The notes under the pieces are model-generated. The model was not told the DNA's origin. It worked only from the letters and a program-made list of their open reading frames with translations, and ran no database searches. A DNA stretch of 64,000 nt, from positions 11,129 to 75,128 of the forward strand of contig JBBQDL010000003.1 in NCBI GenBank assembly GCA_038319665.1. Direction: 5' to 3'. Positions 38,518-44,094 of the stretch are shown here, piece by piece. The stretch's first letter is position 1. Every line of letters begins with the position of its first letter. The position numbers and the translations under genes were made by a program. Origin of the DNA: Candidatus Limnocylindrales bacterium. GTDB lineage: Bacteria > Chloroflexota > Limnocylindria > Limnocylindrales > CSP1-4.

Positions 38518-40047
38518 ATGGATCCCGTGATCATCCTGGCGGTGGCCGTGGTGGCCGCCGTCGGCGGAGCCGTCGTTGGCGTCTTCGTCCGGAGTCTCTG
38601 GGCTTCCCAGACGATGAAGGCGGCGACGTCCGAGGCGCGCCGCATCGAAGCCGAAGCCCGCGCCCGCCAGAAGGAGCTCATCCTCGAGGCCAAGGACGAG
38701 AAGCTCCGCATGGGGCGTGAGGCCGAAGAAGAGGCGCGCGCTCGTCGAGCGGAACTCTCGAGCCTGGAGAGTCGCTTGCTCCAGCGCGACGAGCAGCTCG
38801 ATCAACGCAGCGACATGCTCGAACAGCGCGACCGCAAGCTGATCGACCGTGAGCGCGAGCTGGACAAGACCCGCGAGGACGTCGCCCGAGCACACGGCGA
38901 GCAGGTCGCCGCCCTCGAAAGCGTCGCCAACATGAGCGCCGAGGATGCGAAGGGCATCCTCATCGAGGCGGTCCGCGAGGAGGCCGAGCACGACGCGGTC
39001 AAGATCGCCCGGGCCATCGAGCGGAGCGCTCGCGAGGACGCCCAGGACAAGGCCCGCGACATCGTGATCACGGCCATCCAGCGCGTCGCGGCCGACCATA
39101 CGGCCGAACACACCGTCTCGGTCGTCCATCTGCCATCCGATGAGATGAAGGGCCGGATCATCGGCCGCGAGGGCCGCAACATCCGGGCCCTCGAGCAGGC
39201 GACCGGGATCGACCTGATCATCGACGACACCCCCGAGACCGTGATCCTGTCGGGCTTCGATCCCGTCCGCCGCGAGATCGCCCGCCTGGCGATCACCAAG
39301 CTCATCGCCGACGGCCGCATCCACCCCGGCCGCATCGAGGAAGTCGTGACCAAGGCCCGCGCTGAGGTCGACGCGATCATGCGCCAGGCCGGCGAACAGG
39401 CGGCCTACGACGCGAGCGTGCCCGGTCTTCCGGCGGACATCATCAAGACCCTCGGCCGCCTCAAGTTCCGGACGAGCTACGGCCAGAACGTCCTGAACCA
39501 CTGCGTCGAAACCAGCCACCTCGCCGCCGTCATCGCGGCCGAGATCGGGGCCGATGTCCAGGTCGCCAAGATGGGCGGCCTGCTCCACGACATCGGCAAG
39601 GCAGTCGACCACGAGGTCGAGGGCCCGCACGCCGCCATCGGCGCCTCGATCGCCCAGCGCCACAACCTCTCGCCCAAGGTCATCAACGCGATCGCGGCCC
39701 ATCACCAGGAAGTCGAATACACGTGCCTGGAGGCGCCCATCGTCCAGATCGCCGACGCGATCAGCGCCTCGCGACCGGGCGCCCGCGGCGAATCGATGGA
39801 CACCTACGTCAAGCGGCTCGAGGATCTCCAGGCGATCGCCGAGAGCTTCACCGGCGTCGAGCGCTCGTTCGCGGTGCAGGCCGGTCGCGAGGTCCGCATC
39901 CTCGTCCGCCCCGAGGAGATCGACGACCTCACCGCGAGCCGCCTCGCGCGAGACATCGTCAAGAAGATCGAGGAGCAGCTGACCTATCCGGGTCAGATCA
40001 AGGTGACGGTCATCCGGGAGACGCGCGCCGTCGAGTACGCCAAGTAG
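38518..40047 (+). CDS. rny: Ribonuclease Y
   Basis: N-terminal TM helix, coiled coil, KH domain ([17 protein letters not shown]), HD domain (LLHDIGKA), AVQAGREVR. Confidence 0.97.
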
Positions 40048-40162
40048 CGTCGATCGGCGGCAGACGTCGCCAGCGGGCCACCACCCGATCGCAAACGGGC
40101 TCGAATGACACCTCGGCCGTGCGCGACCGTGCGTTTTGACCCGGCTCGTCGTGTATGTAGGT

Positions 40163-40645
40163 GTGACCACCCAGATGGCGATGACCGGCTCGACTGATTA
40201 CGCCTATGACCGCGCCTTCGAGGCGCACTGGTCGGATGTCTTCCGCTTCGCTCTGGCGTGGACCAATGACTGGGCCGAGGCGGAAGACCTCACCCAGGAG
40301 GCCTACCTGCGGCTGTGGAACCACCGCCGCCAACTCGATTGGGATCGGCCGGTTCTCCCGTGGCTGCTCGTCACGGTGCGCCGCCTGGCCACGGACCGAT
40401 TCCGAAGGATCCGTCGACGCCTGCTGGCGGCACCGGAACCCGCGTCGCTCGATGCGGCGGTGCAGGCACGCTGGCTCGACGTCCAGGTCGCGATGACCCA
40501 CCTCTCGCCGCTCGAGCGGTCGGCGCTGGTCATGACCGCCATCGAAGGTGCCACCTATGAAGAAGCCGCGGTCGTGCTTGCCACGACGGCGGGCGCGCTT
40601 CGCGCGGCCGTGAGCCGCGCCCGAACGAAGTTGGAGACAGCCTGA
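40163..40645 (+). CDS. ECF (sigma-70 family group 4) RNA polymerase sigma factor
   Basis: Region 2 AEDLTQEAYLRLW, region 4 LSPLERSALVM...TYEEAA...AVSRAR; start uncertain (40136, 40163 or 40175). Confidence 0.88.
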   Translation: MTTQMAMTGSTDYAYDRAFEAHWSDVFRFALAWTNDWAEAEDLTQEAYLRLWNHRRQLDWDRPVLPWLLVTVRRLATDRFRRIRRRLLAAPEPASLDAAVQARWLDVQVAMTHLSPLERSALVMTAIEGATYEEAAVVLATTAGALRAAVSRARTKLETA

Positions 40646-41409
40646 TGGACCCATCCCGCCCTGACCGGATCCTGCAAGAGTGGAACGAGGTCGCCGATGG
40701 CGCCCGTCGTCCGGCTGTGCCGCCGCGGCGGGTCGGTGTGCGAGGTGTCGCTTCGGGCCCCAGCCTTGTCGGTGCGGGCGTCCTCCTGGCCGCCGTCCTG
40801 ATCGCCGTAGTCTGGCTCGGGCGTCCCGGTTCGGACGGCGGCATAGGGGCGGTCAGCACACCACTCCCGACCGCCACCGAGACCCCGATCGCCACGCCCT
40901 CGGCGAGCCCGAGCCCGAGCCCGAGCCCGACGCCTGCGGCCACCGCGACCGCGATCCCGACCCCGACGCCAACCCTCGCGCCGACGGTCGCACCTGCCCC
41001 CCGGCCGTGCGATCCCTCGAAGCTCGCGGCTCGGATCACGTTGTGGGAGGGCGCGGCCGGCAGCCGTTTCGCGCACGTCGAGGTGACCAATGCCAGTTCG
41101 CAGACCTGCACGATCCGGGCGATGGACAAGCCCCAGTTCGTCGATGGCAAGGGATCGGTCCTGATCGACGGTCAGACCCCGTCCAGCGCGGCGGTGCTCA
41201 CGCTCGCCCCAGGCGACGTGGTCACGACCGCTGTGCAAGTCTCCAACTACTGCGGTCCGAATCCGGTGCCGCCGGTCAGTGTCGCCTTCGTCCAGAGCGG
41301 CGGCGGCCGGTTTGTGGCCACCCCGGTCTCGCCGACCGATACGACCGCTCCGCCATGCAACGGACCCGGGATGCCGGCCTTGCTCGACATGCATCCCTGG
41401 GCGCACTGA
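40645..41409 (+). CDS. Membrane-anchored DUF4232-like protein (candidate anti-sigma factor)
   Basis: Short N-terminus, one TM helix, Pro/Thr/Ser linker, C-terminal domain C...EGAAG...VTN...C..., 4 Cys; TGATG coupling to the sigma gene. Confidence 0.65.
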   Translation: MDPSRPDRILQEWNEVADGARRPAVPPRRVGVRGVASGPSLVGAGVLLAAVLIAVVWLGRPGSDGGIGAVSTPLPTATETPIATPSASPSPSPSPTPAATATAIPTPTPTLAPTVAPAPRPCDPSKLAARITLWEGAAGSRFAHVEVTNASSQTCTIRAMDKPQFVDGKGSVLIDGQTPSSAAVLTLAPGDVVTTAVQVSNYCGPNPVPPVSVAFVQSGGGRFVATPVSPTDTTAPPCNGPGMPALLDMHPWAH

Positions 41410-42008
41410 TGAAGCGCCTGACGTTCGTCCTCGTCGCCGCGCTGGTCTTCATGGCGTGTTCCGCTCAGGGGGCCGCCCCGACGGCGGCGCCGACGCCCGT
41501 GGCCACGGCCAGCCCGAGTCCTTTGGCCGCACCGACGTCGACCGAGACGGCAGCCCCGACCCCGACGGCCACCCAGAAGCCGACCGCCACGCCCGCACCC
41601 AGCGCGTGTGATCCCGCGAAGCTCGCGGCCCGGATCACCCTGTGGGAAGGCGCCGCTGGGAGTCGCATCGCGCACGTCGAGCTGACGAATGCCAGCTCGC
41701 AGACCTGCACGATCCGGGCGATGGACAAGCCTCAATTAGTCGACGGCAAGGGATCTGTCCTGATCAACGGCCAGACCCCGTCGAGCACGGCGGTCGTCAC
41801 GGTCGCCCCCGGCGGCGTGCTCAAGACGCTCGTCAGGGACTCGAACTATTGCGGCCCGAATCCCACGCCGCCGGTAAGCGTCGCATTCGTCCAGAGCGGC
41901 GACGGCCGGATCGTGGCGACACCGTTCTCACCGACCGACGCGACCGTGCCGCCGTGCAATGGCGCTGGGTCGGGCGCCTCGATCGACATGCATCCATGGG
42001 CGCCCTGA
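41409..42008 (+). CDS. DUF4232-like lipoprotein, paralogue of the upstream gene
   Basis: MKRLTFVLVAALVFMAC signal/lipobox; C-terminal domain very similar to that of 40645-41409; TGATG coupling. Confidence 0.7.
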   Translation: MKRLTFVLVAALVFMACSAQGAAPTAAPTPVATASPSPLAAPTSTETAAPTPTATQKPTATPAPSACDPAKLAARITLWEGAAGSRIAHVELTNASSQTCTIRAMDKPQLVDGKGSVLINGQTPSSTAVVTVAPGGVLKTLVRDSNYCGPNPTPPVSVAFVQSGDGRIVATPFSPTDATVPPCNGAGSGASIDMHPWAP

Positions 42009-43159
42009 TGAGGCACCTGGCCAGCGTCCTGGTCGTCGCGCTCGCCTTCGCGGCGGGCTCCGGCCAGGCTGCAGCTCCGACATCGGCTTCGACTGCCGCA
42101 AGCATGGCCGCCACGATGACTGTGGCGACCGCGACGGCCGCGACGACCGTGGCGACCGTGGCGATCGCGGCCCCCAGCCTCGCCAGGATGATCGGCCAGA
42201 AACTGGTCGTTCGGATGGACGGGCTGACCCCAAGCGCCGATCTGCTCGGGCGGATCAAGCGGGGTGAGGTCGGCGGCGTGATCCTGTTCGGTTCCAACAT
42301 CACGACGCGTACTGCCTTGATAGCGCTCACGGGCAAGCTCCGAGCAGCCGCGGCTGCTGGGGGTCAGCCGCGGCTGCTCATCGCCGTGGACCAGGAGGGT
42401 GGCTCGATCAAGCGGATCCCCTGGGCGCCACCGACGCTCTCGCCGCCCCAGATGGGTCGCATCGGGAGCACGGCGACGGCTCGAACGCAGGGCGCGATGA
42501 CGGGCGCCGCGCTCAAGGGCCTCGGCATCAACGTCGACTTCGCGCCGGTGGCCGATGTCCCGAGTTCGACGGCATCCTTCATCTATCGCGACGGTCGGAC
42601 GTGGTCGTTCAGCTCGACTTTGACCGCGGCCCTCTCGGACGCCTTTGCCAGCGGCTTAGGGTCGAACGGCGTCATCCCATCCATGAAGCATTTCCCGGGA
42701 ATCGGGCGCTCGCCATGGAACACCGACCAGGTCGCCGTGACGTTCTGGTCGTCACGCGCGACGCTCGCGCCGGGACTCCTGCCATACCGGACCGCCATCG
42801 CGCACCACATCCCGATGATCATGCTGTCGAACGGGACGTACAACGCGTACGACCCCGTCAACGGAGCAGGTTGGTCACGCGCGATCTCCAACGACCTGCT
42901 CCGCGGCCAACTCGGCTTCAAGGGCGTGACCATCAGCGACGGGCTGAGCGGCGCGGCCTATTCGCGTGGGCTGGCCACCTGGCAGCTGGCCGTTCGCGCG
43001 GCGCGTGCCGGGACCGACATGATCCTCGTGACGGGCTCGGAGGCCTCCACTCGGTACATCTACACGAAGCTCATGGCCTACGGCGCGAGCGGCTGGATCT
43101 CGAGGACGGCACTGCAAGCATCCTACACGCGGATCCTCGCGATGAAGGCGGGACTCTAG
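42008..43159 (+). CDS. Secreted glycoside hydrolase family 3 (NagZ-like N-terminal domain)
   Basis: Signal peptide; GGVILF, IAVDQEGG, GINVDFAPVADV, KHFPG, LGFKGVTISD, AGTDMIL; TGATG coupling. Confidence 0.85.
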   Translation: MRHLASVLVVALAFAAGSGQAAAPTSASTAASMAATMTVATATAATTVATVAIAAPSLARMIGQKLVVRMDGLTPSADLLGRIKRGEVGGVILFGSNITTRTALIALTGKLRAAAAAGGQPRLLIAVDQEGGSIKRIPWAPPTLSPPQMGRIGSTATARTQGAMTGAALKGLGINVDFAPVADVPSSTASFIYRDGRTWSFSSTLTAALSDAFASGLGSNGVIPSMKHFPGIGRSPWNTDQVAVTFWSSRATLAPGLLPYRTAIAHHIPMIMLSNGTYNAYDPVNGAGWSRAISNDLLRGQLGFKGVTISDGLSGAAYSRGLATWQLAVRAARAGTDMILVTGSEASTRYIYTKLMAYGASGWISRTALQASYTRILAMKAGL

Positions 43160-43215
43160 AGGCCCTCCGGGCCGCCACGATGGGTCCGGCGACTCGGACC
43201 GGCTACGATGCGAGC

Positions 43216-44094
43216 GTGCATGACGGACCCGATGGAGGCGCGACCGGGCGGACGCGACTCGGCAACGTAGCGAACGGCAATGCCCCCCGACCGCACGGGG
43301 CGTGCCGGGTCCTGATGATCGGCGACATGATCGGCAAGCCCGGTCGAGTCGCCGTGGAACAGGTCCTGCCGGGGATCCGCGACGAGCGCGGGATCGACTT
43401 CGTGACCGCCAACGGCGAGAACGTCGCAGGCGGGATGGGCCTCACCGCCTCGACCGCCGACGCGATCCTCGCCTCCGGGGTCGACGTCATCACGTCGGGC
43501 AACCACATCTGGGACAAGCGGGAGATCTACCCGTATCTCGAGGCCAACGACCGCGTCCTGCGGCCGCTCAATTACGGGACGCACGAGGTGCCGGGACGTG
43601 GTTGGGGGACGTACCAGGCCCTCGACGGCACCGACATCGCGGTCATCAACCTCCAGGGCCGGACCTACATGCAGCAGATCGAGAACCCGTTCACCGATGC
43701 GGACCGCCTGCTGGAGGAATCGTCCGAACCGCTCCCGCCGGTCCGTCTCGTCGACTTCCACTGCGAGCTGACCTCCGAGAAGAACGCGCTGGGCCTCTAC
43801 CTCGACGGGCGGGTGAGTGTCGTGGTCGGGACCCACACGCATGTCGTGACCGGCGACGAGCGCATCCTCCCCCAGGGAACGGCCTACCAGACCGACCTCG
43901 GGATGACCGGGCCGATCTGGAGCGTCATCGGGTTCGAGCCACGGACCGTCATCCCGCGCTTCATCAACGCGTTGCCGACGCGCTTCGAGGTGGGGCAGGG
44001 GACCGTCGTCTTCAATGCGGTCCAGGTCGATATCGACCCGGCGACCGGCCGCGCCCTCGCGATCGAGCGGATCCAGCGACTCGTCGAGGCGTGA
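43216..44094 (+). CDS. ymdB: TIGR00282/YmdB family metallophosphoesterase
   Basis: IGDMIGKPGR, ANGENVAGG, TSGNHIWD, VDFHCELTSEK, GTHTHV, TDLGMTGP; GTG 6 nt after TACGAT. Confidence 0.92.
   Translation: MHDGPDGGATGRTRLGNVANGNAPRPHGACRVLMIGDMIGKPGRVAVEQVLPGIRDERGIDFVTANGENVAGGMGLTASTADAILASGVDVITSGNHIWDKREIYPYLEANDRVLRPLNYGTHEVPGRGWGTYQALDGTDIAVINLQGRTYMQQIENPFTDADRLLEESSEPLPPVRLVDFHCELTSEKNALGLYLDGRVSVVVGTHTHVVTGDERILPQGTAYQTDLGMTGPIWSVIGFEPRTVIPRFINALPTRFEVGQGTVVFNAVQVDIDPATGRALAIERIQRLVEA

Follow-up and report, generated by a model that had tools for sequence, protein, structure and literature searches.

A probable self-contained ECF sigma factor operon with a candidate DUF4232 anti-sigma factor in a Limnocylindrales bacterium

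We analyzed a stretch of 64,000 nucleotides (hereafter the window; contig C3:11129-75128) from the 2.55-Mb, 81% complete assembly of an uncultured Candidatus Limnocylindrales bacterium. On its forward strand, the window carries four packed genes encoding an extracytoplasmic function (ECF) sigma factor, a membrane protein with a DUF4232 domain (gene 2), a DUF4232 lipoprotein (gene 3), and a protein of glycoside hydrolase family 3 (GH3) that is predicted to be exported (gene 4). Three of these genes, encoding the sigma factor, gene 2, and the GH3 protein, were found together in every locus with a full-length gene-2 ortholog that we examined. We conclude, with moderate confidence, that the locus is a self-contained, probably autoregulated ECF operon, the core of which would consist of the sigma factor, its anti-sigma factor, and the NagZ/LpqI-like GH3 protein as the main, perhaps only, output.

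Among the major modes by which bacteria transduce signals, pairs of ECF sigma factors and anti-sigma factors are the third. To our knowledge, most sensor domains of ECF anti-sigma factors have no known ligand. Our literature search found no functional study of DUF4232. The locus described here is a compact, strongly co-inherited ECF pair with a candidate DUF4232 sensor, and DUF4232 recurs beside ECF sigma factors in Chloroflexota.

Conservation and genomic setting of the trio

The survey covered 41 relatives together with 301 class-level and 401 phylum-level genomes, and about 60 loci were scored by tblastn. Eleven loci other than the window encode a full-length gene-2 ortholog (covering query residues 1-254), and in 11/11 of them the sigma gene lies directly upstream and the GH3 gene directly downstream. 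The orthologs are 67-97% identical for the sigma factor and 59-84% identical for the GH3 protein, and the junctions within the trio overlap or abut. In all orthologous loci, gene 2 occupies the +1 position relative to the sigma gene, with a 1-nt stop/start overlap. The trio also keeps together across at least three genomic contexts (beside rny, beside relA/methyltransferase genes in locus L030, and elsewhere).

An earlier note on this DNA had proposed a coupled four-gene signaling cassette. The sigma factor, the DUF4232 membrane protein, and the GH3 protein do form a real unit by the criterion of co-inheritance, but gene 3 is absent from 11/11 orthologous loci, including the closest one, L026, whose sigma factor is 97% identical to that of the window. 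The note had made its proposal hinge on the four genes occurring together elsewhere; we found the quartet only in a narrow strain cluster and the trio broadly within one Limnocylindrales family. About 40 additional loci matched the DUF4232 domain only. They encode stand-alone lipoproteins or proteins with other N-termini, and none of them has this sigma factor or this GH3 protein. At the phylum level, 12 of 401 gave matches, all but one in the window's own GTDB family. Judging from these matches, the trio family is essentially confined to that family within Limnocylindrales.

In the window, the trio and gene 3 are flanked by two neighbors that lie outside the module, rny (RNase Y; 38518..40047, forward strand; TIGR03319, 679 bits) and ymdB (metallophosphoesterase; 43315..44094, forward strand; TIGR00282 and PF13277 [YmdB], 329 bits). 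The full order on the forward strand is recA, recX, rny, the four packed genes, ymdB, a PHP phosphoesterase gene, miaB, and miaA. The GC content is about 0.67-0.73 throughout, and a compositional break is absent. The four co-oriented genes between rny and ymdB agree in position and in their Pfam and NCBIfam assignments with what the earlier note had described.

The same note had pointed out this position between two frequent neighbors; the comparison gives it no functional meaning. In six congeners without the cassette at this site, rny directly adjoins ymdB, with a gap of about 80-740 nt, and in other genomes the trio sits elsewhere. In G008 it is found on a separate contig while rny and ymdB adjoin, and in G001 and L030 its neighbors are unrelated to rny/ymdB. 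Only four loci, the closest ones (the window, L026, G010, and L028), have the trio between rny and ymdB, and in G010 and L028 a META-domain gene and 3.8 kb of further genes occupy the slot as well. Because the gap is empty or otherwise filled in congeners, it is a variable insertion slot, and the cassette relocates as a unit. The position of the cassette is incidental, with no functional link to rny or ymdB. In G011 and G012, the rny-ymdB slot carries other inserts, of 2.3 and 6.6 kb. In the window, the stretches of the slot on either side of the cassette are 40048-40162 and 43160-43314.

Sigma factor, candidate anti-sigma factor, and GH3 protein

The product of the first gene (40163..40645, forward strand) contains only sigma regions 2 and 4, with matches to Sigma70_r2 (PF04542, 53 bits) and r4_2 (PF08281, 41 bits). 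Its TIGR02937 score of 69.3 bits, compared with a cut-off of 42.9, places it in the ECF (group 4) sigma-70 family. None of the named ECF subfamilies scored above its cut-off; the best were NF058625 (GFO_1088; 78.6 versus 130) and TIGR02983 (SigE-fam_strep; 65.6 versus 141.6).

Starting from GTG 40163, the sigma factor has 160 amino acids, and the alternative start, ATG 40175, would yield 156. At 40163, 11 loci have GTG and one (L033) has ATG, and third-position variation after this position (ACC/ACG/ACA) supports this codon as the start. A start at GTG 40151, used by some gene callers for a 164-amino-acid product, was rejected, as a 1-nt indel puts it out of frame in L019, L020, and L030. Public gene calls for the sigma factor vary in length, at 156, 160, or 164 amino acids. 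One sigma factor with 96% identity (P0122) is labeled 'Pengzhenrongella sp.' (Actinomycetota) in NCBI/UniRef. Since all other close homologs are from Chloroflexota or metagenomes, P0122 probably stems from a mis-binned or contaminant contig.

Upstream of the sigma gene, we found a promoter-like element, CCGTGCGTTT-N13-CGTGTATG (40127..40157, forward strand), which ends about 6 nt before the GTG start. The element is kept in 12/12 loci irrespective of which gene precedes it, and beyond it the aligned 95-nt upstream regions are unrelated. The 1-nt indel of L019, L020, and L030 falls inside this conserved block, which shows that the block is non-coding. Its geometry, CGTGC-N17-CGTG, is compatible with ECF-type promoters, and we consider the element a candidate ECF-type autoregulated promoter. 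A consensus scan of 39900-43500 yielded neither a sigma-70-type promoter nor an intrinsic terminator. By eye, no Shine-Dalgarno sequence was seen at a usable distance from the sigma start. Together with the conserved GTG about 6 nt after the -10-like block, this suggests that the sigma mRNA may be leaderless or near-leaderless.

The strict CCGTGCGTTT-N13-CGTGTATG pattern occurs once in the assembly. This single occurrence suggests a self-contained, autoregulated operon and, within an incomplete assembly, a regulon limited to the operon itself. The sole other near-match, CGTGCGTT-N15-CGTGT with a spacer 1 nt longer, is located on G000 contig C29:19081-19108 (forward strand). We rejected this site as a second member of the regulon; a convincing downstream gene is missing, and the match is probably due to chance.

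Gene 2 (40645..41409, forward strand; 254 amino acids) and gene 3 match DUF4232 (PF14016) at 37.0 and 33.3 bits, compared with a gathering cut-off of 27, and are the sole DUF4232 copies in the assembly. The earlier note had assigned to gene 2 the topology of an anti-sigma factor, with a short inside segment, one membrane helix, and an outside domain. All three parts are seen in the sequence and in the AlphaFold2 model, which was built from a 91-sequence alignment. An amphipathic N-terminal helix at residues 5-19 (40657-40701; pLDDT 65-74) is followed by a hydrophobic stretch at residues 41-59 (40765-40821), which matches the predicted transmembrane helix 44-58. A disordered Pro/Thr linker then leads to the DUF4232 beta-sandwich at about residues 120-254 (from residue 122: 41008-41406; pLDDT >90). 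Four Cys residues (C122, C155, C203, and C238) are invariant, which fits an oxidizing, extracytoplasmic location of this domain. By the positive-inside rule, the Arg-rich residues 1-40 would be cytoplasmic. Among 115 full-length homologs, residues 1-30 are conserved as strongly as the ectodomain core, and variation is found in the transmembrane helix and the linker. All orthologs, even those that are about 40% identical overall, have the N-terminal motif R-[IL]-L-x-[ED]-[WF]-x-x-[VL]. Given the +1 position, the coupling to the sigma gene, the predicted N-in single-pass topology, the conserved cytoplasmic helix, and co-inheritance in all 11 loci, gene 2 is most likely a single-pass anti-sigma factor.

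We also found DUF4232 beside other ECF sigma factors. Seven further DUF4232 membrane proteins of the class directly follow ECF sigma genes, and the upstream open reading frames carry Sigma70_r2 and r4 in 7/7 cases. These seven proteins have at least three unrelated cytoplasmic N-termini. DUF4232 proteins that follow ECF sigma factors and differ in their N-termini are the pattern expected for cognate anti-sigma factors. The idea that ECF/DUF4232 pairs generally precede secreted hydrolases was rejected, as the neighbors comprise one CE4 deacetylase and three DUF255 proteins, and several pairs are without a recognizable neighbor.

Some of these loci have features of their own. L052 (G183:C1:2451004-2467254, reverse strand) contains an unrelated ECF sigma/DUF4232 pair followed by an overlapping gene for an exported CE4 polysaccharide deacetylase (PF01522, 74 bits), with a further stand-alone DUF4232 lipoprotein about 6 kb away. 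The ECF-adjacent membrane proteins of L063 (G096:C31) and L064 (G122:C186) span about 545 codons from stop to stop and contain two tandem DUF4232 domains. In the sister family, the ECF/DUF4232 pairs of L066, L067, and L070 have an ABC-transporter ATPase gene upstream and a DUF255 (Thioredox_DsbH) gene downstream.

Gene 4 (42008..43159, forward strand; 383 amino acids) encodes a GH3 N-terminal-domain protein (PF00933 [Glyco_hydro_3], 147 bits) with a signal peptide read by eye, in line with the exported GH3 of the earlier note. Because a lipobox Cys is absent, we assume export by way of a plain signal peptide, likewise a by-eye call. The closest PDB matches are the beta-N-acetylglucosaminidases 6k5j, 5bu9, and 3tev and LpqI (6gfv). 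The putative nucleophile D311 lines up with the Asp of 'V[ST]D' in 6k5j, 5bu9, and 3tev, consistent with membership in the GH3 family. The motif K227-HFPGIG-x4-N238-T-D240 (window 42686-42727) departs from the NagZ signature KH[FI]PG[HL]G-x4-D-[ST]-H. In gap-free alignments with 6k5j and 3tev it reads KHFPGIG-RSPW-N-T-D, with Asp in place of His. All 12 trio orthologs (12/12) have [N/D]-T-D instead of D-[ST]-H, and the NagZ equivalog NF003740 scores 120 versus a cut-off of 207. With this replacement, the GH3 protein resembles NagZ/LpqI and falls outside NagZ proper. Every known NagZ enzyme is said to rely on an Asp-His dyad (PMC6572805). Where a carboxylate substitutes for the His, it could still serve as acid/base. 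PDB 5bu9, a structural-genomics entry from Beutenbergia cavernae with the annotation beta-N-acetylhexosaminidase, has the same NTD. The variant NagZ-like GH3 protein, together with the CE4 enzyme beside a paralogous ECF/DUF4232 pair, hints weakly at N-acetylglucosamine (GlcNAc) polymers as the ligand class of DUF4232.

Several observations weigh against an autoregulated sigma/anti-sigma operon. Pfam and NCBIfam searches at E<=0.01 found no anti-sigma domain in gene 2. Class I anti-sigma factors have an N-terminal anti-sigma domain of about 80-90 amino acids (zf-HC2 or RskA_N type); the cytoplasmic part of gene 2 comprises about 40 amino acids with one helix of moderate confidence (pLDDT 65-74). 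Foldseek comparison of the gene-2 model with the PDB gave weak, generic immunoglobulin-like matches (E>=1e-3), and the matches of the ectodomain included ApaG, PCuAC, Fn3-like domains of GH3 enzymes, and BsuPI; we did not base a function on any of them. By sequence, the only PDB match was of the low-complexity linker to SslE/AcfD, which we rejected as compositional along with the NCBIfam TonB, SslE, and BamI matches. The upstream motif is without the usual ECF -35 'AAC' and could instead be an operator for another regulator, and since the assembly is 81% complete, further copies of the motif could exist. Finally, without the NagZ dyad His, the substrate and even the activity of the GH3 protein are uncertain.

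Some of these points would fit a different explanation, which we consider unlikely, namely that gene 2 is an envelope protein and a target of the sigma factor rather than its anti-sigma factor. The sigma factor would then be controlled transcriptionally, by a distant anti-sigma factor, or via a CGTGC...CGTGT operator. The lack of anti-sigma-domain homology and the short cytoplasmic segment with its single, moderately confident helix are in keeping with such an arrangement, as is an upstream motif that is unlike the canonical ECF promoter and contains CGTG in both conserved blocks. However, the cytoplasmic N-terminus, though too short for a domain of its own, is conserved like the ectodomain core, the +1 position with its 1-nt overlap is invariant among loci, and DUF4232 membrane proteins with unrelated N-termini follow ECF sigma factors in all seven further cases.

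Origin of the gene-3 lipoprotein

Gene 3 (41409..42008, forward strand; 199 amino acids) had been described in the earlier note as a lipoprotein carrying a near-copy of the outside domain of gene 2, and our analysis bears this out. Residues 75-253 of gene 2 and residues 24-198 of gene 3 are 75% identical over 179 residues (E 7e-89), with the DUF4232 domain of gene 3 at residues 67-197 (41607-41999). The gene-3 lipobox, VFMA-C17 (MKRLTFVLVAALVFMA-C17; Cys17 at 41457-41459), was read by eye using the PROSITE PS51257 rule, and the genome encodes Lgt (PF01790, 207 bits), in agreement with a bacterial lipoprotein.

A repeat search revealed a direct repeat with a spacing of 599 nt and 76% identity over 300 nt. 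The two tandem units of about 599 bp span 40873..42094 (forward strand), with the junction near 41472-41495, and each begins in the gene-2 linker, crosses the stop/start overlap, and takes in the first 25-29 codons of the gene that follows. In both copies the nucleotide likeness crosses the TGATG by about 85 nt into the next gene and then decays, and the signal peptides of gene 3 and the GH3 protein are identical at 14/24 residues. An intact gene 2, a chimeric open reading frame, an intact GH3 gene, and a TGATG present twice are exactly what one tandem duplication predicts, which argues for a duplication origin. On this sequence evidence, gene 3 is a chimera of the GH3 signal peptide with the gene-2 linker and DUF4232 domain, generated by a single 599-bp tandem duplication. 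Such an origin is a textbook-quality example of gene birth, in which capture of a neighbor's signal peptide turned a membrane-tethered sensor into a free lipoprotein.

The duplication also bears on the three TGATG stop/start overlaps from which the earlier note had read a threefold coupling. The overlaps are present at the junctions of the sigma gene and gene 2 (40643-40647), gene 2 and gene 3 (41407-41411), and gene 3 and the GH3 gene (42006-42010), all on the forward strand. However, the third arose from the second through the duplication and is not an independent case of coupling. The lipobox can be traced in a similar way. A lipobox Cys is present in the GH3 orthologs of G010 and in the gene after gene 3 of L071, which explains the lipobox of gene 3; the GH3 protein of the window has Gly at the former Cys position.

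The order of sigma gene, gene 2, and gene 3 is also found on a JGI metagenome contig (L071), and a third gene-3-type protein (P0049) is present in metagenomes. The gene-3 lipobox is kept in all three strains. Between strains (window versus L071), the gene-2 domain and gene 3 both have a ratio of nonsynonymous to synonymous substitution rates (dN/dS) of 0.14-0.21, which indicates that both copies are maintained under purifying selection. The synonymous divergence (dS) between the paralogs is 0.55-0.62, compared with 0.35-0.51 between strains. Being at least as large as the between-strain value, it suggests that the duplication is not very recent. Since gene 3 is missing from L026, the gene was either lost there by recombination between the repeats or spread by recombination.

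These data allow us to weigh the possibility, doubtful in our view but deserving attention, that gene 3 has no regulatory role. It would then be a young, nearly neutral by-product of the duplication, expressed via an inherited start, signal peptide, and coupling, and destined for loss by recombination of the 599-bp repeat. Its absence from L026 and from all 11 orthologous loci is compatible with this, as are the instability of direct repeats of such length and the stand-alone DUF4232 lipoproteins that already exist in the family. Against a neutral by-product, dN/dS for gene 3 is about 0.2 between the window and L071 at a dS of about 0.5, no invariant Cys or motif residue has been lost, the lipobox persists in three strains, and the paralog dS of about 0.55-0.62 implies that the duplicate has lasted a substantial time.

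Of the two copies, gene 3 is consistently the one closer to the outgroup gene-2 sequences, without exception, although the sequences are short. In a DUF4232 tree, gene-3-type copies nest among the closest gene-2 sequences; this tree is poorly resolved, since the sequences are short and gene conversion is possible. The two copies may have evolved asymmetrically or undergone gene conversion, and both are unproven. For the sigma gene and the first 60 gene-2 codons, dS is about 0.24-0.27 relative to L026 and about 1.6 relative to L071. The gene-2 DUF4232 domain is nearer to L071 (dS 0.35) than to L026 (0.61), and gene 3 is nearer to gene 2 of L026 (0.44). This mosaic likeness within 40175-42008 suggests recombination or gene conversion inside the operon, which such short sequences do not establish.

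The distribution of lipoboxes enters into yet another explanation, which we regard as improbable. Here the DUF4232 proteins would be partners of the GH3 protein rather than ligand sensors. The enzyme would dock on the immunoglobulin-like DUF4232 ectodomain, serving as an anchor, an inhibitor, or an accessory domain in trans. Occupancy of the enzyme or its engagement with substrate would set the stability of the anti-sigma factor, and the lipoprotein would be a second anchor. The lipobox Cys is gone from the GH3 protein of the window and retained in gene 3; the enzyme is single-domain, without the C-terminal domain and the Fn3-like domain seen in larger GH3 enzymes, and is strictly co-inherited with DUF4232. 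The Foldseek matches to Fn3-like domains of multi-domain GH3 enzymes and to the protease inhibitor BsuPI also point in this direction, but they are weak (E>=1e-3, TM-score about 0.2-0.45) and typical of any beta-sandwich. In addition, other ECF/DUF4232 pairs of the class have no GH3 gene nearby and are accompanied instead by a CE4 deacetylase, a DUF255 protein, or nothing recognizable.

Proposed circuit and comparison with known systems

In the autoregulated operon that we favor, the amphipathic helix 5-19 of gene 2 would hold the sigma factor at the membrane at rest. An extracytoplasmic cue, perhaps a GlcNAc-containing fragment of cell-wall or environmental glycan (a speculative ligand), would act on the disulfide-stabilized DUF4232 domain. 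Regulated proteolysis would then be the most likely way of inactivating the anti-sigma factor; the genome has a gene for an M50 site-2 protease. The freed sigma factor would transcribe its own operon from CCGTGCGTTT-N13-CGTGTATG, if this element is indeed sigma dependent, and thereby raise GH3 output. The gene-3 lipoprotein, as a membrane-tethered free copy of the sensor domain, would most plausibly modulate signaling as a competitor or partner for the target of the sensor.

A bolder proposal, which we see as a long shot, is that DUF4232 is an unrecognized extracytoplasmic receptor domain for GlcNAc-containing fragments of cell wall or glycan, or for the GH3 protein bound to them, that signals via a one-helix anti-sigma segment of a new structural class, with gene 3 as a decoy that sets the induction threshold. 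If true, the gene-3 lipoprotein would be a bacterial analog of decoy receptors, caught shortly after its origin. Most likely, the locus represents a standard ECF design with an unstudied sensor and leaves current concepts unchanged. For an uncultured organism, it provides a well-defined candidate for heterologous reconstitution, and the one-helix cytoplasmic segment may be a minimal anti-sigma module for orthogonal synthetic circuits.

The proposed design resembles that of sigmaE-RseA of Escherichia coli and sigmaW-RsiW of Bacillus subtilis in having a sigma factor with regions 2 and 4 only, a coupled +1 partner with one transmembrane helix, likely autoregulation, and an available M50 site-2 protease. 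No anti-sigma topology is commoner than a single transmembrane helix, which occurs in 82 ECF groups (ECF classification 2.0, PMC7826278). Unlike these two systems, the locus described here has no detectable class I anti-sigma domain, a one-helix cytoplasmic part of about 40 amino acids, and a DUF4232 sensor.

The sigE-cseA-cseB-cseC operon of Streptomyces coelicolor is another ECF sigma operon that encodes an extracytoplasmic lipoprotein tuning the response. Its lipoprotein, CseA, is a negative modulator of the ECF system, and SigE is under the control of a two-component system, not an anti-sigma factor.

CnrH-CnrY-CnrX of Cupriavidus metallidurans offers a likeness for both DUF4232 proteins. 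There, a very short cytoplasmic peptide on a single-pass protein binds the sigma factor, as we propose for gene 2, and CnrX, a second extracytoplasmic protein of the operon, may be likened to gene 3. The CnrH structure 4cxf is among the PDB matches of the window's sigma factor. CnrY has almost no periplasmic domain and leaves sensing to the metal sensor CnrX (see also PMC7826278), whereas here the candidate anti-sigma factor carries the ectodomain itself and gene 3 is a copy of it; the sequences are unrelated.

In logic, the locus is also similar to sigmaV-RsiV of B. subtilis and sigmaP-RsiP of Bacillus thuringiensis (PMC8844934, PMC8092216), in which an ectodomain perceives a cue that acts on the cell wall and the output consists of peptidoglycan-acting enzymes. 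The ectodomains, however, are unrelated, and the output here would be a GH3 exo-glycosidase rather than peptidoglycan-modifying or beta-lactamase genes. For the enzyme itself, the nearest comparison is NagZ/LpqI, including LpqI of Mycobacterium tuberculosis (PMC6572805, PDB 6gfv). The proteins have in common the KHFPG motif, the nucleophile Asp, and an architecture of just one (alpha/beta)8 domain of the GH3 N-terminal type, about 340 amino acids long. LpqI is exported and lipid-anchored, and members of the GH3 family described here are likewise predicted to be exported or lipid-anchored. They differ from NagZ/LpqI in the Asp-His dyad, which is replaced by [N/D]-T-D in the window GH3 protein and in all of its trio orthologs.

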